From a virus (lineage: Duplodnaviria > Caudoviricetes), in IMG/VR virus record IMGVR_UViG_3300031696_000001, positions 1-62,169 of that record: DNA of 62,169 nucleotides; one strand, written 5' to 3'. The position numbers were made by a program, and so were the translations under genes. Position 1 is the stretch's first letter; each line of letters begins with the position of its first letter. The notes beneath the pieces were generated by a model. The model did not search any database, was not told where the DNA came from, and was given only the letters and a program-made list of their open reading frames with translations. Of this stretch, positions 10,236 through 47,586 are shown in pieces.

Positions 10236-10439
10236 TTAATTTATACTGGCTTGATGATAGTCATTATCATCATCATCATCATAATACCCTCTTACCGAAT
10301 TCTCTTCTCTCTCTATTGAAGCAAGACAATCTTCTAAGTCCCTTTTTTTATGGGTTTCGTTGTAATTCCCATACATCTCTATTTTCCTTGCCTTAATATT
10401 TTTCAACTCTTTATGTAATCCTTGTAATTTAGTTTGCAT
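10236..10439 (-). CDS. hypothetical protein (likely start MQTKLQ at 10439)
   Basis: The shorter start avoids overlap with the upstream gene. Confidence 0.6.
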   Translation of the reverse strand: MQTKLQGLHKELKNIKARKIEMYGNYNETHKKRDLEDCLASIEREENSVRGYYDDDDDNDYHQASIN

Positions 10440-10446
10440 AATATAT

Positions 10447-10725
10447 TTATAAGTGTCCTCCATATGAATGACCATCTTCATCAACGGGACATTGAAATCT
10501 CCATTCACTATCCATTTCAGTTTCATTCATTCCATCATAATCATCTACCCCACTTCCAAACTCTACTTTTGAGAATGTATACTTTGCATCCATTTGGTCA
10601 GCCCATAATTGCTCGTTATCATTTATCCAATCCATCATATCATCTTGTTCAACATCATTAGGAACTTCAATTTCTATCTCTGTAAACTTGTGGTACACAC
10701 TTCTTTGTTGTATTTTTACTATCAT
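10447..10725 (-). CDS. acidic hypothetical protein
   Basis: 92-aa ORF ending YGGHL. Confidence 0.75.
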   Translation of the reverse strand: MIVKIQQRSVYHKFTEIEIEVPNDVEQDDMMDWINDNEQLWADQMDAKYTFSKVEFGSGVDDYDGMNETEMDSEWRFQCPVDEDGHSYGGHL

Positions 10726-10894: not shown

Positions 10895-11064
10895 TATTTT
10901 ATTTTTAGTCCATCGTTAATTTTAATAGCTTTCTTTAAGCTAAGTGTCCAGTCTTTGATAACATTATCAATATTTTTATCTATTGTAGCATTATGCTTAC
11001 CCTTAGATTTTTTAAGTTTCTCAATCTCTTGGATTAAGAATTCTTGTAATTTGTTATTTTTCAT
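10894..11064 (-). CDS. small hypothetical protein (56 aa)
   Basis: MKNNKLQEFL...; TAATG coupling to the next gene. Confidence 0.6.
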   Translation of the reverse strand: MKNNKLQEFLIQEIEKLKKSKGKHNATIDKNIDNVIKDWTLSLKKAIKINDGLKIK

Positions 11065-11069
11065 CTTAT

Positions 11070-11345
11070 TTATATTAAATTAATCATTACAGTACCAGCA
11101 TCATACCACTCAGAGTACCATCCTCTTTTCTTTAACTCTTCTTCCCATTTATTAAGTACTCCAAATACTCTGTTATTATGATCCTCAGAATAGTAGTCAT
11201 ATATTACCTCTCCTTTATACTCCTCCATAGATTCTCCACATAAGTGTATACCTCCAGTGCCTCCGCTAAAGTCTTCTGATGTACCTACAAACTCTTGATG
11301 TTTTGATAACCAATTCATCATTTGGTTTCTTTTTATTGCTTTCAT
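11070..11345 (-). CDS. hypothetical protein
   Basis: 91 aa, ...GWYSEWYDAGT. Confidence 0.8.
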   Translation of the reverse strand: MKAIKRNQMMNWLSKHQEFVGTSEDFSGGTGGIHLCGESMEEYKGEVIYDYYSEDHNNRVFGVLNKWEEELKKRGWYSEWYDAGTVMINLI

Positions 11346-11377
11346 TGTTTATTTAAATTTGATTATTAATTCGTTTG

Positions 11378-11409
11378 CAAAGATAAGTAATATATATTTA
11401 TTACACAAG
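11378..11409 (-). promoter_or_regulatory. Bacteroidota-type early promoter
   Basis: CTTG-N20-TATCTTTG on the minus strand. Confidence 0.7.
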
Positions 11410-11430
11410 TTTTATACAACTTATTTACAC

Positions 11431-11778
11431 TTATCGGTAGTCATCACAAAATAATTGCCATTCCATCCATCGCTCAATCTTTACCAGCTCTTTGATGGAT
11501 GTTAATTGCACATTTAATATTAATATTGATTTATCATTCTCTTTACTTATCTCATCACTATACTTTGGCATAATATCATCTCCATCATTGTTATACCAAA
11601 ACTCCCCAATAATTTCTCCACATATTGCCTCTATCTCAATTAAAGAATCATTGTAGTATCCTCCAGTACCTTTGTGCAATGCCTTTGAAATCTTATTAAC
11701 TATTGATTGCATCTCCTTAATTTGCTTATCTTGTTCTTGTGGTATCTCAACCTCGTATACATCGTTAAATACTTTCAT
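11431..11778 (-). CDS. hypothetical protein, paralogue of 12453..12782
   Basis: Shared QIKE..S...KI......TGGYYNDS(L/I)I motif. Confidence 0.8.
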   Translation of the reverse strand: MKVFNDVYEVEIPQEQDKQIKEMQSIVNKISKALHKGTGGYYNDSLIEIEAICGEIIGEFWYNNDGDDIMPKYSDEISKENDKSILILNVQLTSIKELVKIERWMEWQLFCDDYR

Positions 11779-11875
11779 TTTGTGTGCTTTAAATTTTAGG
11801 AATCAACTGTTGACTCCTTGTACCACCAAAACCTCACTACTTTCGTAGCAAGGCAAATGGTGTCCAACACACAAT
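11779..11875 (-). ncRNA. structured RNA motif copy A (GNRA hairpin, GGTA linker, RGGARTCAR/TTGATTCCT hairpin)
   Basis: Hairpins at 11824-11862 and 11798-11818; homologous to 13562-13655 with compensatory changes. Confidence 0.7.
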
Positions 11876-12160
11876 TTATCTATTTAAGGCATTCATTATA
11901 CCTTTACCTATTATCCTTTGTCTTTCTCTAAATTCAGAACAATCTATCTCTACCTTATCAAACCATTTTACATCCTTACTATTATCTAATTTGATGATGA
12001 CATCTCCATATTTATTTAGGATCTGTTGCTTGTACCTAATAAGACTATCTTTATCATACACTAATCTCATACTATCTCCTCCATTAGGCATATGTACTTG
12101 TCCTAAAAATATCTCCATTAACATATCATATGTTAACCATCTTAATTTCATTCTTATCAT
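11876..12160 (-). CDS. hypothetical protein
   Basis: 94-aa ORF. Confidence 0.75.
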   Translation of the reverse strand: MIRMKLRWLTYDMLMEIFLGQVHMPNGGDSMRLVYDKDSLIRYKQQILNKYGDVIIKLDNSKDVKWFDKVEIDCSEFRERQRIIGKGIMNALNR

Positions 12161-12165
12161 ATCTA

Positions 12166-12450
12166 TTATATTTCAGTTAATATTCCGTTAATCTCCTCAT
12201 ACTCATAGTCTTCAGGACATTCCCATTCAGTCCAATAGTAAATTTCATCATTGTAAGCCCATTCAAGTAGTCCATCATCATCTAATAAACTTAGAGGTAT
12301 ATCGTTTCCCTCTTCATCTTCAGCAGTCCAATCCTTACTCCTGAGTAGCTTAATTAAGTCCTTCTTATGCTTGATATATTCATTGTCATTGAATACATAA
12401 CCATCATTCATTCCCTCTCCCGTTACCGAGCAACATCTTGCATATTTCAT
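12166..12450 (-). CDS. hypothetical phage protein
   Basis: MKYARCCSVTGEGMNDGY...YYWTEWE. Confidence 0.8.
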   Translation of the reverse strand: MKYARCCSVTGEGMNDGYVFNDNEYIKHKKDLIKLLRSKDWTAEDEEGNDIPLSLLDDDGLLEWAYNDEIYYWTEWECPEDYEYEEINGILTEI

Positions 12451-12452
12451 AA

Positions 12453-12782
12453 TTATCTTTTTATTTCCTCCATTAGTAATTCAACCTTTACCATCTTAGT
12501 AATTGATGATAATGTTTCTTTTAAGTCCTTGATAGTAACCTTATTTTGAAGTCCTATCTCAACACTATAAACCATACTCTCCTCCTTTAAGTAGTATCCA
12601 TCAGCATCCATTATTCCATTTGCATAAGCAAACTCATCCCATATATAGCTTGAATCATCAGTACAGATTATACTATCATTATAGTAACCTCCCGTTGATT
12701 TACCTACTTGATTAGCAATCTTTCTCATTAAGGATGATACCTCCTTAATCTGTATCTGTTGAATTTGTGTATCTAATTTCAT
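12453..12782 (-). CDS. hypothetical protein, paralogue of 11431..11778
   Basis: Shared TGGYYNDS motif; lies directly downstream of the hammerhead. Confidence 0.8.
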   Translation of the reverse strand: MKLDTQIQQIQIKEVSSLMRKIANQVGKSTGGYYNDSIICTDDSSYIWDEFAYANGIMDADGYYLKEESMVYSVEIGLQNKVTIKDLKETLSSITKMVKVELLMEEIKR

Positions 12783-12808
12783 GTTGTTGGTGTTAATTGG
12801 TATCTTAT

Positions 12809-12863
12809 GATACTGACACTACTTGCGTAGTGTTTCGGCTAATAGAAGCCTCATCAGAGTATC
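12809..12863 (-). ncRNA. type I hammerhead ribozyme
   Basis: GAUACU-CUGAUGA-GGCU(UCUAUU)AGCC-GAA-ACACUAC(GCAA)GUAGUGU-C^AGUAUC: complete core, three perfect stems, GUC cleavage triplet. Confidence 0.93.
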
Positions 12864-12865
12864 TA

Positions 12866-13561
12866 TTATTTGTTATGATGGTGTATGTGAGTCTCTATCA
12901 AATCATCAGAGTATCTCTTGATTACCTCATTCCAATCTATAAGGTTTATATCATTTGCATTGAATTCATCCTCTCTAACTAATCTGAAGAATGTTTGTAA
13001 GATATCCTCTTTCCAATACTCAGTATTATCTAACACTAAACATAATCGGTAGGTTTGGATGTTTGTGTATCCGTTAACCTTTACACTATCCATAATTGAT
13101 TTACCAATTTCATCTCCATTCTCATCAATACAAGCATCATTCTGAGCATCTACCCAAGCATCTGATTGATATTTTTTAACATCAACTGCATCTCCATTCT
13201 CATCAAAATCTCCTAAGATATCCTCATCTCTGCAATCAGGACATATATCACAGAAATCATGTTCTTCTCTTGTCATGTCTTTATCACATACCTCACAAAT
13301 AGGTTCAAACTCCTCTCCAGCTATTCTCGGTAGGAAATGCTCATCCTCTGCATATATACCTTTGAAATCATGCAGTACATCCGTTAACCTATGCTCTAAG
13401 TTATTTACTACTGCTATTACCCATTCTGGGTTTAATTCTACTACTCTGCCTATTGCCGTCTTACTATCTACTCCAAAGTTTAACTGCCAATCTTGGCTAA
13501 GGAAAAAATTCATTGGCATAAGGAAATTTAATCTTGGTACTAACATCTCATCTCTTTTCAT
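12866..13561 (-). CDS. hypothetical protein with Cys cluster (likely start MKRDEML at 13561)
   Basis: CEVC...CDICPDC and two DENGD repeats. The ORF-track start at 13588 lies inside an RNA hairpin, while 13561 follows the TTAAARCACACAA leader. Confidence 0.75.
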   Translation of the reverse strand: MKRDEMLVPRLNFLMPMNFFLSQDWQLNFGVDSKTAIGRVVELNPEWVIAVVNNLEHRLTDVLHDFKGIYAEDEHFLPRIAGEEFEPICEVCDKDMTREEHDFCDICPDCRDEDILGDFDENGDAVDVKKYQSDAWVDAQNDACIDENGDEIGKSIMDSVKVNGYTNIQTYRLCLVLDNTEYWKEDILQTFFRLVREDEFNANDINLIDWNEVIKRYSDDLIETHIHHHNK

Positions 13562-13655
13562 CTTGTGTGTTTTAATGGTAGGAATCAATTGCTGATTCCC
13601 TCTACCTCGAATAACTCACATATCTCTATGCAAGTCGTTCGGTAGTGGTGTTAGG
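13562..13655 (-). ncRNA. structured RNA motif copy B
   Basis: Hairpins at 13602-13645 and 13580-13600; same layout as 11779-11875. Confidence 0.7.
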
Positions 13656-13868
13656 TTAGATAGTATCGTATCCTAACTCAGATAACCATTCGTTATAAAA
13701 TTTGTACATTTCCTCCTTAGTACGGTACATTATACCTGCTGAAGTAGGGTGATTGGATATACTCTGATAGTAAGTAATACATCCGTTACCATCTGACATC
13801 TTCTCCTTATAAAGATATATCTTGTATCCCTCGCAAACCTTGTCCATATGTAATGTGTGTAATAGCAT
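13656..13868 (-). CDS. hypothetical protein
   Basis: 70-aa ORF. Confidence 0.7.
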   Translation of the reverse strand: MLLHTLHMDKVCEGYKIYLYKEKMSDGNGCITYYQSISNHPTSAGIMYRTKEEMYKFYNEWLSELGYDTI

Positions 13869-13886
13869 AATTTATTCTCTTTTTTA

Positions 13887-14162
13887 TTAGTTATTTAGGT
13901 ATAATTCTGATTTCTCAATGTTCTTGATTTCATACTTAGGTAATTCATCTAAGTACATGGTGTAAACATCCCATATTGACTCGCACTTATCATTTATCTT
14001 ATCCCATTCCCTCCCTTCTTCCCCAATTAGATTGGAAATTATATCTCTTGCATCATTACAGGAATGATACTTGCTTAACCATGTTGTTGCCTTGTTTACA
14101 AGGGATTGATTCTTCTTGTTTACTGCTGTAATTGTCTCATCGTAGACTCTAATTTTACTCAT
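13887..14162 (-). CDS. hypothetical protein (first early gene)
   Basis: 91 aa, preceded by TTAAAGCACACAATT and a promoter. Confidence 0.8.
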   Translation of the reverse strand: MSKIRVYDETITAVNKKNQSLVNKATTWLSKYHSCNDARDIISNLIGEEGREWDKINDKCESIWDVYTMYLDELPKYEIKNIEKSELYLNN

Positions 14163-14202
14163 AATTGTGTGCTTTAAGTTAATGTTGTGTTTAAATTCTG
14201 TG

Positions 14203-14233
14203 CAAAGATAGTTTATTAAATTGGATAATCAAC
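14203..14233 (-). promoter_or_regulatory. Bacteroidota-type early promoter
   Basis: GTTG-N19-TATCTTTG on the minus strand. Confidence 0.7.
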
Positions 14234-14435
14234 TATAATTTCAAAAGAATTGTTGTTCCATATACTCAAGATACTGTAAGTGATTGATAATCAGCATACA
14301 TAAGATATCTTAATTTACCTGGTAAATTGGTGATATGTTTATGTGTTTGGGGTGTCGATGGGGTACTAAGAGACATCTCTTTGTCTCTATTAATTCTCTT
14401 TAAGTTTATAATGTGGGGAGTATTGGGGAATCCGT

Positions 14436-14460
14436 AGTCATTAAGGAGTCATTAAGGAGT
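14436..14460. repeat. tandem 11-bp repeat AGTCATTAAGG x2 plus AGT
   Basis: Read directly from the sequence. Confidence 0.9.
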
Positions 14461-14491
14461 AAGTAATGCGTGTAACGAGGGAACAGTAGGG

Positions 14492-14534
14492 GTGTGCATG
14501 GGGCTGAGACTGGCAGTGTGCATGGGGCTGAGAC
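14492..14534. repeat. 19-bp direct repeat GTGTGCATGGGGCTGAGAC x2 with 5-bp spacer
   Basis: Copies at 14492-14510 and 14516-14534. Confidence 0.9.
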
Positions 14535-14669
14535 AAAAAGACGGATTTAAATCAATGAAAATTTAGCTTTTCCAGAAAACTTTTGAAAAAAATATTCGTT
14601 TCCTGAGAGGGGGTGCTGTGCGTATGACATATAATAACCCTCAACCCCGAGACGTCTAAAAAAATTTTT

Positions 14670-14677
14670 TATCTTTG
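14670..14677 (+). promoter_or_regulatory. -7 promoter box TATCTTTG (first promoter of the plus arm)
   Basis: Matches TAnnTTTG, 14 nt before ATG 14692. Confidence 0.65.
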
Positions 14678-14691
14678 CTAAAATAAACACT

Positions 14692-14739
14692 ATGAAAAAG
14701 AAAACTAAAAAGAAAGTAAAAACAACAAAAGGATATTAA
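14692..14739 (+). CDS. 15-aa Lys-rich micropeptide MKKKTKKKVKTTKGY
   Basis: Lies between the promoter and the next ATG (1-nt gap). Confidence 0.45.
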   Translation: MKKKTKKKVKTTKGY

Positions 14740-14740
14740 T

Positions 14741-14968
14741 ATGAAAAAAATGACAAACCCATTTATAGGCTCTGACAATGTAGACGGCTTATATGTAAAG
14801 GACGGTAGACTAATGAATGAACGTGAGGACGGTGAGACTGGTATAGCACAGGCTTCTCGTTATAGAAAGCAAATGAAAAAACAATACAAGATTGATTGTA
14901 TAGCGGACGGTATTGAGCGTGCTGAGATGAGAAAAAAAATGGATCGTTTCGATAAATACGATTACTAA
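14741..14968 (+). CDS. hypothetical protein
   Basis: 75-aa ORF followed by a terminator. Confidence 0.75.
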   Translation: MKKMTNPFIGSDNVDGLYVKDGRLMNEREDGETGIAQASRYRKQMKKQYKIDCIADGIERAEMRKKMDRFDKYDY

Positions 14969-14992
14969 ATAATTTATTTGTTGACTGTTGAG

Positions 14993-15035
14993 AAGGGGTT
15001 GGATGCATTGATTTGATGTTCACCCCCTTTTTTTT
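14993..15035 (+). terminator. intrinsic terminator
   Basis: AAGGGG...CCCCCTT imperfect hairpin followed by a T-run. Confidence 0.55.
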
Positions 15036-15040
15036 ATATC

Positions 15041-15236
15041 CATGACAAGAACCTGTCATACTCATGATAGCTTAAAAACAAACTCGTCATAGCCTAACTA
15101 ATTGGTTTCTATTCTTTTATATTTATTTATGACAAGATGACAAGAATAAAGTAGTTATTCTATAAAGAAAAGTATAAAGAAGAGTAGTGTATATATATAT
15201 ATATAAATAGAAAACTTTTTTTTATCATATTGTCAT
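15041..15236. repeat. origin-like element 2: inverted ATGAY pairs flanking an (AT)n tract
   Basis: ATGAC 15129 and 15137; (AT)n ~15190-15205; ATCAT 15224 and GTCAT 15232; extra ATGAC/GTCAT at 15042-15090. Confidence 0.6.
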
Positions 15237-15277
15237 ATTATATTTTAAATATAATTCTTTACTTTATTTTATTTTAT

Positions 15278-15285
15278 TATCTTTG
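15278..15285 (+). promoter_or_regulatory. -7 box TATCTTTG upstream of groEL
   Basis: TTATTATCTTTGC. Confidence 0.65.
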
Positions 15286-15317
15286 CAGCAAATTAAATCA
15301 ATTTAAATTCTATTACA

Positions 15318-16898
15318 ATGCAAGAACAGGGATACGTACCTAAGGACCTTCACTTCGATGAGTCTGCTCGTGAAAAACTAATATCGGGAATCTCCAAAAT
15401 ATCTAATGCAGTTAAGAGTACTCTTGGGCCACAAGGGCAGACAGTGCTTATTGAATCTACAGAACATACTCAAGGATTAACAGTAACTAAAGATGGTGTT
15501 ACTGTAGCTAAGAGTATATTCCTTATTGATCCTGTAGAGAACTTAGCGGTTAGGATGATGAAGCAAGCTTCGGAGAAGACGGCTAACACCGCAGGTGATG
15601 GAACCACTACAGCAATTGTTTTGACTGAGGCATTAGTAAAGGCTGGTCAGAAGTATATTAGTAAAAAGGATAATACTATCCAGGTTGTTAGAGAGATTAG
15701 AGCTGCAGGGGATAAGCTATTAGAAAGAATTAAAAAAGAGTCAAGAGAGGTAACTGACGAAATGCTTGTAGATATTGCAACTATCTCTGCAAATAACGAC
15801 AAGGAGATTGGCGATATCATTGCTAAGGCATACAAAGAGGTTGGTAGAGATGGTATAGTTACTGTAGAGAGATCTCAAACTGATAAGACATATGCTGAGG
15901 TCACTAATGGTATAAAGGTTGATAGAGGGTATACTTCTACAATGTTCATTAATGACCAAAGAAAAGACGAGTGTATTTTGGAAGGGGTTAAGGTTCTCTT
16001 ATGCGATACTGAGATTACTAATATCCTGCAAATTGAGAATATACTTAAACCAATTATTAATTCTGGTGACAAATTACTGATCATAGGTAACTGTTCGACT
16101 AATGTTATTAATACTTTAGCTGCAAATGTGCAGCGTAATGGGTTAAAGTTCTGTAATATTATGGTACCATCCTTTGGATACAAGGCTCACGAGCTAATGC
16201 AAGACATCGCATTCTCTGTAGGAGCTAAATATTTTTCAGAACAAACAGGAGATGACTTATCTTTAATCAGAATGGAGGACTTAGGTATAGCTGATAAAGT
16301 TATAGTAGGTAAAGACTCTACCATTATTATTAAGGATGGTGAGATTACTAAGGAAATAGAGGATCGTGTAGAAGAGCTTAGAGTGCAGCAAACAACTTTA
16401 ACGGCAAAACATGAGCGTGAGTTTGTGAATGAGCGTATAGCGTCCTTAATTGGAGGTATAGGTTGTATTCAAGTAGGTGCTACATCAGACATTGAGCAAA
16501 AAGAAAAATTCGACAGAGTCGATGACTCTGTCTGTGCAGTGCGTTCTGCACTACAGGAAGGAATTGTAGCGGGAGGTGGGTTGTTATTATCTACTTTAGC
16601 TAAAGAGTTTAAGGGAGATAGTGCATGTGATAGAATATTAAAGGAAACTTTAGAAGCACCTATAGCACAGATATTAAAAAATGCAGGATTAGATGTTACT
16701 AAAATATATACTAAAGCATTAAAAGAAAATGAAGGTTATAATGTGGTTACTGGTGAATTTGGGGATATGTTTGAGATGGGTGTTATTGATCCTGCTAAGG
16801 TTACAATACAAGCCCTATCTAACGCAATCAGCGTTGCAACCACAATACTTACTACGAACGCTATTATTACTCATGCAAGAATTCATACCGATGCTTAA
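15318..16898 (+). CDS. groEL: phage-encoded chaperonin GroEL
   Basis: STLGPQG, VTKDGVTVAK, AGDGTTTA, GIVAGGG, GVIDPAKV; lacks the GGM tail. Confidence 0.96.
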   Translation: MQEQGYVPKDLHFDESAREKLISGISKISNAVKSTLGPQGQTVLIESTEHTQGLTVTKDGVTVAKSIFLIDPVENLAVRMMKQASEKTANTAGDGTTTAIVLTEALVKAGQKYISKKDNTIQVVREIRAAGDKLLERIKKESREVTDEMLVDIATISANNDKEIGDIIAKAYKEVGRDGIVTVERSQTDKTYAEVTNGIKVDRGYTSTMFINDQRKDECILEGVKVLLCDTEITNILQIENILKPIINSGDKLLIIGNCSTNVINTLAANVQRNGLKFCNIMVPSFGYKAHELMQDIAFSVGAKYFSEQTGDDLSLIRMEDLGIADKVIVGKDSTIIIKDGEITKEIEDRVEELRVQQTTLTAKHEREFVNERIASLIGGIGCIQVGATSDIEQKEKFDRVDDSVCAVRSALQEGIVAGGGLLLSTLAKEFKGDSACDRILKETLEAPIAQILKNAGLDVTKIYTKALKENEGYNVVTGEFGDMFEMGVIDPAKVTIQALSNAISVATTILTTNAIITHARIHTDA

Positions 16899-45060: not shown

Positions 45061-47586
45061 ATGTCAAATCCTTCGTGTAATAATCAAACTCAAGTATATT
45101 GGAACGGAACTTCTTTCTTTTCAGCTACTGCATTTTTTAGTGATTCTACTCTTACAACTCCATCACCTGACGGGTGGTATGCTTTTGGTGGTATGATTAG
45201 GCAAATTTTAAACGGTGTTTTATTAAGTGCTGTTCCTTGTGATTCATGTGTAATCCCTTGTGGTGATCCCTTTATGTTTAATGGTGGAGGAACTGGTAAG
45301 TATATAATTAATTTTGGTATGGGGCTTACTTCAGGTGCGGCTGTTATTACTTTTAATACTGGTATTAGTGAAACAACTTGGTTTCCTGTTCCAGATCAGT
45401 GCACATGGACTTATGACGGTGTTAGTGCTTCTGAATACAGCTCTTTAACAGGCGGTTATATGAAAGGACTTATCGGAGGTCCAGATGGAACTAACCCTAA
45501 TAACTCTGGACTTAAGTTTTGTCTTTACCAACAAAATCCTGCAGGGCTAACGACTGTAAACTTAGGTACTGGAGGATTACAGTCAGTTGGAGAGGAGTAC
45601 CCTTATGATATATCTTTAAATAATTTTCCTTCTTCTGGGCCTATAGTCAATTTAGGAAGTCAAGTTGGACCTATTGGATGGACAGGATTAACTAATAATG
45701 CAGGGGCATATCAATCTACATTATTAAATTGGAATTGCGCAGATAAAACAACAGTGAATTGCGGTGGTGGAAATAGTAGTGTAGGAGGAGTAAATACTGG
45801 TATGTTAGGCGTCCCTTCAAGTCCTTATAATGATAGCCTTCCTTTAGCTCCAAACTTACAATCATTTTCTCCAGGAGGAAATACTCAGTGGAATGCTCAA
45901 GGAAATGAAACACGTAATAGTGTAATGGTAGTACCATCTCCACCCAATACAACTTCTAATGTATTAACAATATCTATTGTTGGTCCTTGCTCCAGCACAT
46001 GGTGGGCAATTGATGTTAAATGTCCAGAGCCATTAACAAAAATACCATGCTCAACAACATTTGGTGATTTAGAAGAGCCTTCAATTGGGCAATTAAAAAC
46101 ACCGCTTGCGGATGTTTGTGCTTATCCATTAAACAGATTTATTTATCATGTTCCCGTAGATGCTTGGGGTAATGCTAACCCTAATTCTATTTATCATGTG
46201 CCTGGAGATCTTTTTCCTTTAGCCTCTAATTTTGATCCAATTACTGGCCTTCCTTTAGGTCAGCCAAAGGGAGTTTTAGGATTGGGAGATTGGGTGTTTG
46301 AAGATGAAAACGGAGTAACTCCTGTAGCTGTTGGTGTTTATAAAACTCAGTTTGATGCATTAGATGGTTTAGGTCTTCGTAGTTGGGCGGTACAAGTTGG
46401 ACCCAGAGAATATAAAGACATGGGTTTATCTAATGTAATAGGAGGATTAGTTGCATCGCCTCCTGAAGATTATGTTGATCAAGTTTGGGCTCCAGATTGG
46501 GCAGGAGGAATTACAGCTGCAGATGTGCAACTTACTGGAGCGAGAGTACCTGGCATAGTTAGATCAATTACTCCTTGTGATCCAATTGACTCTTTTGATT
46601 GTGATCCTACAACTGGAAATTGTTCGGATCCAGGTACAGGTTTAGGTCAGTACCTTACATTATCTGATTGTAATGCTAATTGTAATCCACCTCAATCTTG
46701 GGATTGTGTTGGAGGAAACTGTGTAGATCCAGGTACAGGTTTAGGCCAGTACTCTACATTATCTGCTTGTAATGCTGTTTGTAATCCTATAGCTCCTTGT
46801 AGTGGATCTTTTGCTACACCAATATTACCTGTAGGGCAATATAATATAGATATGGATGCAGGTTCAACAACGGGAGCAGTTATTATTCGTTTTGAGCCAT
46901 ACCAAGTTCCTGATAGATGCACATGGACGTATGATGGCGTTAGTGCATCGGAATATAGTTCTCCTACTGTTGGGTATCTACAAGGATTAATAGGGTCAGA
47001 GGATGGTGGTGGAGTAAATGGTTGTGGACAACCAAGTGGATCAAATCCAATGATTACAAATGCAGATGGTTCAGATGGAGTGCAGTTTGCTGGTACTATT
47101 TCAAATTGGGATCCTATTACAAGTACGTTTATTTCAACAGGGAGTTCAGTAAATATGGGTCCTTATACTAATCAGGCTGCTGGAGGCGTTACTCTTACAG
47201 CAGACGCTGCAGGGCCTGGATATAGTATGATGGTAGTACCAAAACCTAATGCAACTCCATCTTTAATGTCATTTCAGATGGATGGTCCTTGTGGTTCAAC
47301 TATATTTAATTTTGAAGCAAATTGCCCTGTTGAATTATCTTTAAAAAATCGTGGTGTTTTAGGCGGTATATGCCAAGCTTATACTACTGATTTTTATACA
47401 GCATCTCCACATACAACTGATGGATTAAGCCAATTCAATTTACAGGTTCATGACTGGGTGTTTGAAGATATAAACGGTGTAACTCCTTTACCTGCAGGTG
47501 ATTATCCTGCAAGATTCCCAGGAGGTCCACATAAAATAATGACGGTATCAAGTAATGGAGTTATAACTGCACTTGTAGGATGCTAA
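45061..47586 (+). CDS. Cys/Pro/Gly-rich virion appendage protein with internal duplications
   Basis: Duplicated VPDxCTWTYDGVSASEYSS domain; tandem CxDPGTGLGQYxTLSxCNAxC. Confidence 0.7.
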   Translation: MSNPSCNNQTQVYWNGTSFFSATAFFSDSTLTTPSPDGWYAFGGMIRQILNGVLLSAVPCDSCVIPCGDPFMFNGGGTGKYIINFGMGLTSGAAVITFNTGISETTWFPVPDQCTWTYDGVSASEYSSLTGGYMKGLIGGPDGTNPNNSGLKFCLYQQNPAGLTTVNLGTGGLQSVGEEYPYDISLNNFPSSGPIVNLGSQVGPIGWTGLTNNAGAYQSTLLNWNCADKTTVNCGGGNSSVGGVNTGMLGVPSSPYNDSLPLAPNLQSFSPGGNTQWNAQGNETRNSVMVVPSPPNTTSNVLTISIVGPCSSTWWAIDVKCPEPLTKIPCSTTFGDLEEPSIGQLKTPLADVCAYPLNRFIYHVPVDAWGNANPNSIYHVPGDLFPLASNFDPITGLPLGQPKGVLGLGDWVFEDENGVTPVAVGVYKTQFDALDGLGLRSWAVQVGPREYKDMGLSNVIGGLVASPPEDYVDQVWAPDWAGGITAADVQLTGARVPGIVRSITPCDPIDSFDCDPTTGNCSDPGTGLGQYLTLSDCNANCNPPQSWDCVGGNCVDPGTGLGQYSTLSACNAVCNPIAPCSGSFATPILPVGQYNIDMDAGSTTGAVIIRFEPYQVPDRCTWTYDGVSASEYSSPTVGYLQGLIGSEDGGGVNGCGQPSGSNPMITNADGSDGVQFAGTISNWDPITSTFISTGSSVNMGPYTNQAAGGVTLTADAAGPGYSMMVVPKPNATPSLMSFQMDGPCGSTIFNFEANCPVELSLKNRGVLGGICQAYTTDFYTASPHTTDGLSQFNLQVHDWVFEDINGVTPLPAGDYPARFPGGPHKIMTVSSNGVITALVGC

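Follow-up and report, generated by a model that had tools for sequence, protein, structure and literature searches.

The virus record IMGVR_UViG_3300031696_000001 (Duplodnaviria; Caudoviricetes) is a complete record of 62169 bases with 32.7% G+C; it was analysed over its whole length and is called the window below. It carries a type I hammerhead ribozyme of 55 nucleotides (nt) on the minus strand, at 12863–12809, between a gene for a protein of 240 amino acids (aa) and a gene for a protein of 109 aa. At the level of structure, we regard this ribozyme as genuine with near certainty. Judged from the sequence, it is likely to be active in vivo and, with only slightly less confidence, to function as a compact type I hammerhead on the sense strand of a leftward polycistronic mRNA of a marine phage encoding GroEL. 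An intercistronic processing or insulating role appears to be the best-supported mechanism. The initial annotation had proposed a type I hammerhead between two genes here, and the call holds: the core and all three helices are intact, a covariance model built without the window gives the site 58.2 bits, and relatives carry compensatory changes.

Every element that had been listed for the ribozyme was found at the same place when the minus strand was read directly. Stem I has 6 base pairs (bp), formed by GAUACU (12863–12858) and AGUAUC (12814–12809). The core strand CUGAUGA (C3–A9) occupies 12857–12851 and leads into stem II (GGCU/AGCC, 4 bp), whose 6-nt loop is UCUAUU; stem II, its loop and the following G12, A13 and A14 extend over 12850–12834. 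Stem III, ACACUAC-GCAA-GUAGUGU (12833–12816), has 7 bp, including the pair A15.1–U16.1, and a GCAA tetraloop. From the consensus GUC↓A, the scissile bond is predicted 3' of C17 (12815) and 5' of A1.1 (12814). Single unpaired A residues stand directly 5' of stem I (12864) and directly 3' of it (12808), in columns conserved at 90% or more in the family described below (A3 and A56/A59, respectively, in alignments A1/A2).

The ribozyme has all the residues of the hammerhead core (C3 U4 G5 A6 N7 G8 A9, G12 A13 A14, A15.1–U16.1 and a residue other than G at position 17). The pairs adjoining the core (1.1–2.1, 10.1–11.1 and 15.1–16.1) are A–U, G–C and A–U, with no mispair; a mispair next to the core is a criterion for rejecting hammerheads in the accessible part of PMC3088659. 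The topology is that of type I, with stem I open and stems II and III closed by loops. For the isolated 55-mer, the minimum free energy (MFE) structure is the hammerhead secondary structure, at -17.3 kcal/mol.

Both strands of the 62169-base genome were scanned with a descriptor (CUGANGA, stem II of at least 3 bp, GAA, a stem III closed by A–U, a residue other than G at position 17 and stem I of at least 4 bp), and the ribozyme was the sole type I hammerhead found. Loose matches, with stems of at least 4/3/4 bp, appeared in 16 of 1000 dinucleotide-preserving shuffles of the genome. A match as good as the observed one (6/4/7 bp) appeared in none of the 1000, and a chance look-alike is therefore excluded.

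The ribozyme has many relatives in other viral contigs. The IMG/VR contigs were scanned with a pattern made up only of the fixed core, the stem II arms of the window and GAAAC, which matched at least 119 contigs; the family figures given here and below cover the matches listed from them. A complete type I fold is present in 111 of the 123 listed pattern matches, while three scored as type III (two of them weakly) and nine had neither fold. These 111 matches comprise 96 distinct sequences. Stem I is exactly 6 bp long in 99 of the 111, and 78 have a tetraloop on stem III; the residue at the cleavage site is C in 97 and A in 14.

Of the 96 distinct sequences, the 79 in which the loops are short and stem I has at least 5 bp were aligned as A2, with the window left out, and the covariance model R1 was built from these 79 viral-contig ribozymes. 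Searched against the genome of the window, R1 gives a single hit up to E 10, at 12866–12806; the hit covers the full length of the model (1–58) with 58.2 bits (E 2.6e-13), and 20 of the 58 model positions match the window by construction, since the search pattern for the family took its core and stem II from the window. Changes on both sides are seen at all six stem I pairs of A2, whose rows were preselected for pairing by the descriptor; the unbiased figure for folding is therefore the 111 of 123 given above for the matches listed. The inner pairs of stem III also covary in the family rows. CUGAUGA is invariant in 79 of 79 rows, which were chosen by the search pattern. Outside the core, four positions are conserved at 90% or more: two A residues, one on either side of stem I, and, in loop II, its first U and an A. 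The window carries all four. In this short-stemmed class, these residues presumably make the tertiary contact between stem I and loop II, which is needed for fast hammerhead cleavage at physiological Mg2+. By its sequence, the ribozyme belongs to an abundant class of compact intercistronic type I hammerheads of phages.

A second set of relatives was retrieved through the GroEL protein of the window, whose homologues (38–85% identity) gave 79 viral-contig loci. A search of these loci with R1 gives 61 hits at E <= 0.1; the stricter limit of E <= 1e-3 leaves 48 hits in 27 loci, and the proportion of 27 in 79 is a lower bound, as many loci include little upstream flank. All 61 hits lie upstream of GroEL and on the opposite strand, matching the ribozyme of the window in block and orientation, and the 58.2 bits of the window fall inside the range of the clear hits (42–62 bits). 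Alignment A4 consists of 40 distinct rows from these relatives that were fitted to the model structure, a procedure that favours pairing; in it, 96.9% of cells pair, and changes on both sides occur at six of six pairs in stem I, three of four in stem II and three of five in stem III. The invariant pairs are G10.1–C11.1 of stem II and the two core-proximal pairs of stem III. All three helices are thus seen to covary in the aligned relatives, and their core varies only at position 7, rarely elsewhere. Homologues of the 240-aa gene are found in L126, L127 and L145 (relatives are cited by L number where they must be told apart), and each is followed by a hammerhead 1–9 nt past its stop codon. The copies in L126/L127, L145 (its second copy) and L146 combine the stem I and leader of the window with different, internally compensated stems II and III.

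The placement of the ribozyme between its two neighbours is tight. The gene upstream (12866–13588, minus strand, 240 aa) ends with the stop codon TAA at 12868–12866, and the 2-nt gap between this stop and stem I, given in the initial annotation, is borne out, as is the distance of about 32 nt from the cleavage site to the next ATG (from 12814 to the ATG at 12782). The gene that starts there (12453–12782, minus strand, 109 aa) is, like the upstream one, an open reading frame (ORF) of unassigned function. Its leader in the 3' product (12783–12814, minus strand) is 32 nt long, A/C-rich and without a Shine-Dalgarno motif, which would fit a host among the Bacteroidota. Among the 96 distinct family ribozymes listed, the median gap between the upstream stop and stem I is 1 nt (2 in the window) and the median distance from the cleavage site to the start codon is 25 nt (32 in the window). 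The gap lies within -6 to 10 nt in 49 of the 96 and the leader measures 15–45 nt in 66 of them, some extreme values of spacing being artefacts of stop or start triplets inside stem I. A tie between the family ribozymes and particular gene families was considered and rejected, as the 144 proteins that flank them fall into 128 clusters; none of these proteins matches any of seven window proteins at E <= 1.

The leftward block of the genome contains about 32 ORFs (255 to about 14200), and the rightward block opens with the GroEL gene at 15318. By GroEL, the nearest cultured phages are Flavobacterium podoviruses of about 60 kb, of the genus Elemovirus (39% identity). The phage of the window, marine and GroEL-encoding, is probably a flavobacterial podovirus. 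Promoter-like motifs were searched with the consensus TTG-N17-23-TAnnTTTG, which we take to be of the Bacteroidota type. There are 11 matches on the minus strand and four on the plus strand, counts that come without a shuffle control; sigma-70-type matches are fewer than in shuffles (16 versus 24.5) and are uninformative. One of the motifs, at 14203–14232 (minus strand), lies before the first leftward gene and is a candidate promoter of the leftward transcript by its match to the consensus only. The next such motif on this strand is at 11378–11408. Both sit just upstream of leftward genes.

On the minus strand, no terminator-like site was found between 15400 and 11000. Stem III itself was considered as a terminator and rejected, as it is not followed by a U-run and no such site was seen on this strand within 11000–15400. 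With no terminator-like site interrupting the region and promoter-like motifs at 14232–14203 and 11408–11378, the data fit a single leftward transcript of about 2.8 kb, in which three genes would lie upstream of the ribozyme cut and four downstream of it. The flanking genes may be early, a timing suggested solely by the divergence of this block of small ORFs from the GroEL gene.

In the mechanism that we infer, the 55 nt would fold into a three-way junction during transcription, and the 2'-OH of C17 (12815) would attack its own 3' phosphate. The upstream fragment, carrying the genes for proteins of 91, 70 and 240 aa, would end in a 2',3'-cyclic phosphate and be capped by stems II and III. The downstream fragment, carrying the genes for proteins of 109, 94, 94 and 115 aa, would start with a 5'-OH, 32 nt ahead of its first AUG. 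The two halves of the mRNA would in this way gain independent stability and translation, as with a natural ribozyme insulator.

Several results weigh against a functional processing ribozyme at this site: the selection of rows and positions built into A2, A4 and R1, the scores of curated families, the length of loop II, contigs from RNA libraries, the predicted fold in the native context and the turnover of the site in relatives. The initial annotation had named the Rfam hammerhead models as a check, and at curated thresholds this check fails, with no match to Rfam 15 at gathering scores; none of the hammerhead families RF00163, RF00008, RF02275-7 and RF03152 reaches its gathering score at the ribozyme. 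The best match, in a permissive search over 261 nt, is to RF03152 (RAGATH-1 hammerhead), with 24.5 bits (E 0.039) where 56.3 would be its gathering score, and in the same mode RF00008 (Hammerhead_3) reaches 12.6 bits against 48.5. Thirteen further loci with R1-positive ribozymes likewise give no hammerhead match at Rfam gathering scores, and for this reason the miss is a blind spot of the library and not a weakness of the site. As to loop II, the insert between the stem II arms measures 6 nt in the window, a length shared by only five of the 111 matches listed (it is 5 nt in 92 of them), and the presumed tertiary contact may be weakened by it.

Parts of 11400–14200 are covered by four RNA-library runs from two studies, in the form of assembled contigs without information on ends, strand or level. 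These contigs may contain DNA, and gaps in their coverage (e.g. 12710–12781 in X17 and most of the stretch in X18) are uninformative. Two of them, X16 record 2 (12425–13519) and X17 record 8 (12782–13526), bridge the predicted cleavage site; uncut RNA or contaminating DNA is present at the site, and partial cleavage is neither proven nor excluded by them. Another contig, X19 record 19, has the same sequence as the window from 12483 to 12810 and is unrelated to it beyond 12864. The four substitutions and four indels listed between the two all fall within 12811–12845, inside the ribozyme. With these edits applied, the variant is still a perfect hammerhead, with stems of 6/4/6 bp, in which stem III has been replaced by a different, fully paired stem of 6 bp.

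Could the element be an inactive relic or a look-alike that does not cleave at physiological Mg2+, for example because its 6-nt loop II fails to dock on the end of stem I? The unmet Rfam thresholds, the unusual length of loop II and the bridging contigs would agree with such a relic, and degenerate copies do occur in relatives (L146 2861–2915, L139, L154 and L157 5834–5875). We nevertheless consider this reading extremely improbable: the window deviates neither at core positions nor at core-adjacent pairs, the shuffles exclude chance, close relatives keep intact versions through compensatory changes, and the family includes members with 6–8 nt between the stem II arms (L025, L014, L084 and L098).

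The fold predicted in the native context is a further point on this side. With the native flanks added, the nearest-neighbour MFE structure breaks stem I, whose pair probability is at most 0.02, and the hammerhead fold lies 2.7–4.8 kcal/mol above the MFE, in an energy model that ignores tertiary stabilisation. The idea that the ribozyme of the window is unusually prone to misfolding was rejected, since an equal or larger penalty is found in 22–33 of the 93–95 family members listed.

In this MFE structure, the 3' strand of stem I is engaged by a hairpin at the 5' end of the 3' product, GUAUC-AUAA-GAUAC (12813–12800, minus strand, 14 nt). The initial annotation had described this hairpin as a competitor of stem I, and it is indeed present and competes thermodynamically, but it neither exceeds chance nor is enriched in the class. 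When its own 20-nt flank is shuffled, a 5-bp hairpin appears in 635 of 10000 cases, and hairpins of at least 5 bp that re-use the 3' strand of stem I occur in 13 of the 96 family members listed, against 15.5% of shuffled flanks; a role as a general feature of the class was rejected on this comparison. By analogy with the hairpin of RiboJ, an accessory function remains plausible.

The 5' edge of the ribozyme takes part in a 16/17-nt direct repeat: the stretch 12851–12867 recurs at 12903–12919 on the minus strand. The ribozyme edge that is copied reads A, GAUACU and CUGAUGA, and the second copy lies 52 nt upstream, inside the 240-aa ORF, where it is read as the codons K-R-Y-S-D-D. Its 12-mer ATACTCTGATGA occurs exactly twice in the genome. 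The coding copy is the ancestral one, the same 14 nt being present in L002 at 680–693; in L126 and L145, the protein motif is kept and the match in DNA is partial.

These sequences could be parts of a regulated switch, in which GAUAC (12804–12800), and perhaps the repeat copy GAUACU (12915–12910), would compete with stem I. Cleavage would then be possible only for a brief time during transcription, or it would be governed by the passage of ribosomes at the neighbouring stop codon. Once the RNA is cut, the hairpin would shield the new 5'-OH end as a cap and prevent re-ligation. Such a switch is in line with the appearance of the hairpin in the MFE once flanks are added, with its identity in L145, L126/L127 and L146 despite their differing stems II and III, and with the X19 variant, whose one change in this segment (12811) leaves both stem I and the hairpin paired via a wobble. 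The stop codon stands 2 nt from stem I, and a terminating ribosome of the established footprint size would cover the 5' strand of stem I. The engineered insulator RiboJ, as presented in the accessible part of PMC8794103, likewise consists of a hammerhead and an immediately downstream hairpin. However, the hairpin copies of the four relatives (L145, L126, L127 and L146) are identical and offer no covariation, and in L140/L197 a change of stem I is uncompensated and the hairpin is one pair shorter. Together with the shuffle counts, the lack of enrichment and the competing folds of so many family members given above, this makes the switch very improbable, if a little less so than a relic.

The last point on this side is the turnover of sites, as the ribozyme is dispensable at a given site: its presence or absence differs between relatives at orthologous positions. 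The gene homologous to that at 10447–10725 of the window is followed by a hammerhead in L002 (3878–3935, 54.6 bits), L155 (2453–2512) and L140 (2722–2780; L140/L197) and by a truncated one in L146 (2861–2915). In the window no hammerhead follows this gene (10430–10450, minus strand), just AAAUAUA before the next start. At the site of the ribozyme itself, the 3' tail of the 240-aa gene (12866–12893) is homologous to the tail of the L002 gene at 1372–1629, after which L002 has, at 1629–1670, a hairpin and then GUC-AGUUAC, without CUGAUGA or stem II. To judge from these remnants, L002 possibly keeps here the 3' half of a decayed hammerhead at an orthologous site.

The same stem I and leader, AGUAUC-AUAA-GAUAC-CAA.., stand before non-homologous genes in the window (109 aa), L145 (74 aa) and L146 (35 aa), and in L145 and L146 they also follow unrelated genes. 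The leader CCAAUUAA(C/A)AC..ACA is common to the window, L145, L126 and L146, again ahead of non-homologous genes, and many copies in the phage group have a stem I of the form NAUACU/AGUAUN. The turnover of sites, the X19 variant and this sharing of stem I and leader before non-homologous genes suggest that the ribozyme and its leader form a portable module. It is doubtful that such a module drives gene shuffling. Only slightly less doubtful is the view that the hammerhead and leader mark a cassette boundary that processes the mRNA and whose conserved segments (stem I NAUACU, CUGAUGA, GAAAC, GUC-AGUAU and the leader) serve as homologies for the swapping of small accessory genes. If this were true, the ribozyme would influence how the block is expressed as well as its modular evolution, and the copy of the 16/17-nt repeat in the upstream ORF would be the footprint of an exchange event.

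A rival explanation goes further and regards the ribozyme and leader as mainly selfish or recombinogenic, spreading among intergenic sites with their segments as crossover points, so that any effect on expression would be secondary. The observations just described speak for it: the varying occupancy of orthologous sites, the recurrence of one stem I and leader in different gene contexts and of NAUACU/AGUAUN across the phage group, the X19 variant, with its unrelated sequence beyond the ribozyme, and the 128 clusters among 144 flanking proteins. A purely selfish element, however, would require neither a sense orientation without exception (61 of 61 hits) nor the tight packing of stop, ribozyme and start, nor a compensated and catalytically complete core. 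No transposase, integrase or homing endonuclease adjoins the ribozyme, and the eight neighbouring ORFs are without a Pfam hit. We consider this explanation improbable, more so than the cassette boundary; it is also compatible with mRNA processing and does not exclude it. Intercistronic processing of a leftward transcript by an active hammerhead is the reading that we retain.

Some features near the ribozyme and elsewhere in the window were observed in passing. For the eight neighbouring ORFs, the Pfam search gave no hit and the PHROG search nothing of use; the 240-aa protein had no hit in either. This protein is a mosaic: its residues 11–90 and 172–234 match two separate genes of L002 (412–756 and 1372–1629), in the opposite order, and residues 136–171 match longer proteins in L003–L005. 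The 109-aa protein has a marginal PHROG match only (phrog_34609, E 0.008), and no relative of it was found in viral contigs. It shares, by eye, K-(S/G)-T-G-G-Y-Y-N-D-S-(I/L)-I at similar positions with the 115-aa protein (11431–11778, minus strand), and on the strength of this motif the two may be paralogues. In L128 (4681–4944), two hammerheads flank one ORF of 41 aa whose start resembles a lipoprotein signal peptide (a hydrophobic stretch and L-S-S-C); in L156/L161, three hammerheads lie inside a stretch of about 900 nt.

The region that separates the leftward and rightward blocks is richer in G+C and holds, at 14492–14534, an exact 19-nt direct repeat, GTGTGCATGGGGCTGAGAC, in two copies 24 nt apart, which may be a regulatory or replication site. 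In the rightward block, 46615–46787 holds two 74-nt copies of 86% identity, spaced 99 nt, which look like coding sequence with Cys-rich-looking codons. Over the whole window, the permissive Rfam search gave no other ribozyme, merely weak rows at chance level, and no tRNA or tmRNA was found. With blastn, 12400–13600 matched none of 50,697 phage records.

That hammerheads occur between phage genes has been known since 2011 (PMC3088659, in its accessible part), and the window contains one more phage hammerhead. It is a true positive missed by standard annotation. A pattern with a single stem II variant already hits at least 119 viral contigs, which makes the class abundant; an RNA-processing signal therefore systematically escapes gene calling and operon models for marine and flavobacterial phages. 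The class is of practical interest in that curated models miss it, in that its members cluster in a single gene block of a group of marine phages and in that its sites turn over. In our literature search, no paper was found on hammerheads in Flavobacterium or Cellulophaga phages or in marine phages encoding GroEL; PMC13481778 concerns RNA viromes, and phages are unmentioned in its accessible part.

Among the curated families, RF03152 (RAGATH-1) resembles the window in three respects: its elements follow the type I order, its stem I is short, and an A/U-rich stretch directly precedes stem I. The upstream hairpin of its model and its stem II consensus are unmatched by the window, which scores below the curated threshold. 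Type I topology and the catalytic core are also shared with the hammerheads of satellite DNA and Schistosoma (Hammerhead_1). In these, stem I is long and its internal loop docks on loop II, whereas stem I of the window stops after 6 bp. Within clan CL00010, the permissive Rfam output displayed the best match only (Hammerhead_3, 12.6 bits), with no row for Hammerhead_1.

RiboJ, to the extent that it is described in the accessible part of PMC8794103, resembles the arrangement in the window in having a hammerhead, an immediate hairpin and a translation start region, and in that its cleavage removes the upstream RNA and leaves a defined 5' end. It was engineered from sTRSV and has a separate hairpin of 23 nt, whereas the hairpin of the window has 14 nt, re-uses the 3' strand of stem I and competes with it.

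The closest precedent in the literature that we consulted is Perreault et al. 2011 (PMC3088659), in whose accessible part hammerheads flank varied genes in polycistronic units of phages and prophages, some of them cleaving in vitro and in Escherichia coli, and their function is left open. The consensus core, the sense orientation between polycistronic genes and the variable flanking genes are common to those hammerheads and to that of the window. Several copies sometimes flank a single gene there, like those in L128 and L156 here, and the role proposed is the same, namely the cutting of long phage transcripts into shorter mRNAs. That account stresses bacterial type II hammerheads with pseudoknots; the hammerhead of the window, in contrast, is of type I and lacks a pseudoknot, and its stem I of 6 bp is open, with unpaired A residues at the helix end.

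A cultured counterpart is found in Flavobacterium phage vB_FspP_elemoC_15-9A, where R1 gives a hit at MT497098.1:45113-45176 (49.3 bits, E 7e-11); in MW202828.1, R1 gave no hit. The site is overlain by a 108-nt coding sequence annotated as a hypothetical protein, elemo159A_phanotate55 (MT497098.1 45101–45208; L204 14955–15062), on the strand opposite to its neighbours. It is probably a spurious ORF call, and the hammerhead of the cultured phage has in effect been annotated as a 35-codon ORF on the wrong strand. The role of phage hammerheads has been open since 2011, to go by the accessible part of PMC3088659, and this cultured phage offers a tractable test system. Its GroEL is 39% identical to that of the window, position 7 of its core is C, and its hammerhead lies on the GroEL strand of the record, whereas that of the window lies in the block divergent from GroEL. 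In other respects it resembles the window: elemoC_15-9A is a GroEL-encoding podovirus of about 60 kb, and its hammerhead, of the same compact type I class, stands between two small genes of the same strand, with the upstream stop abutting stem I and the ATG about 27 nt past the cut.

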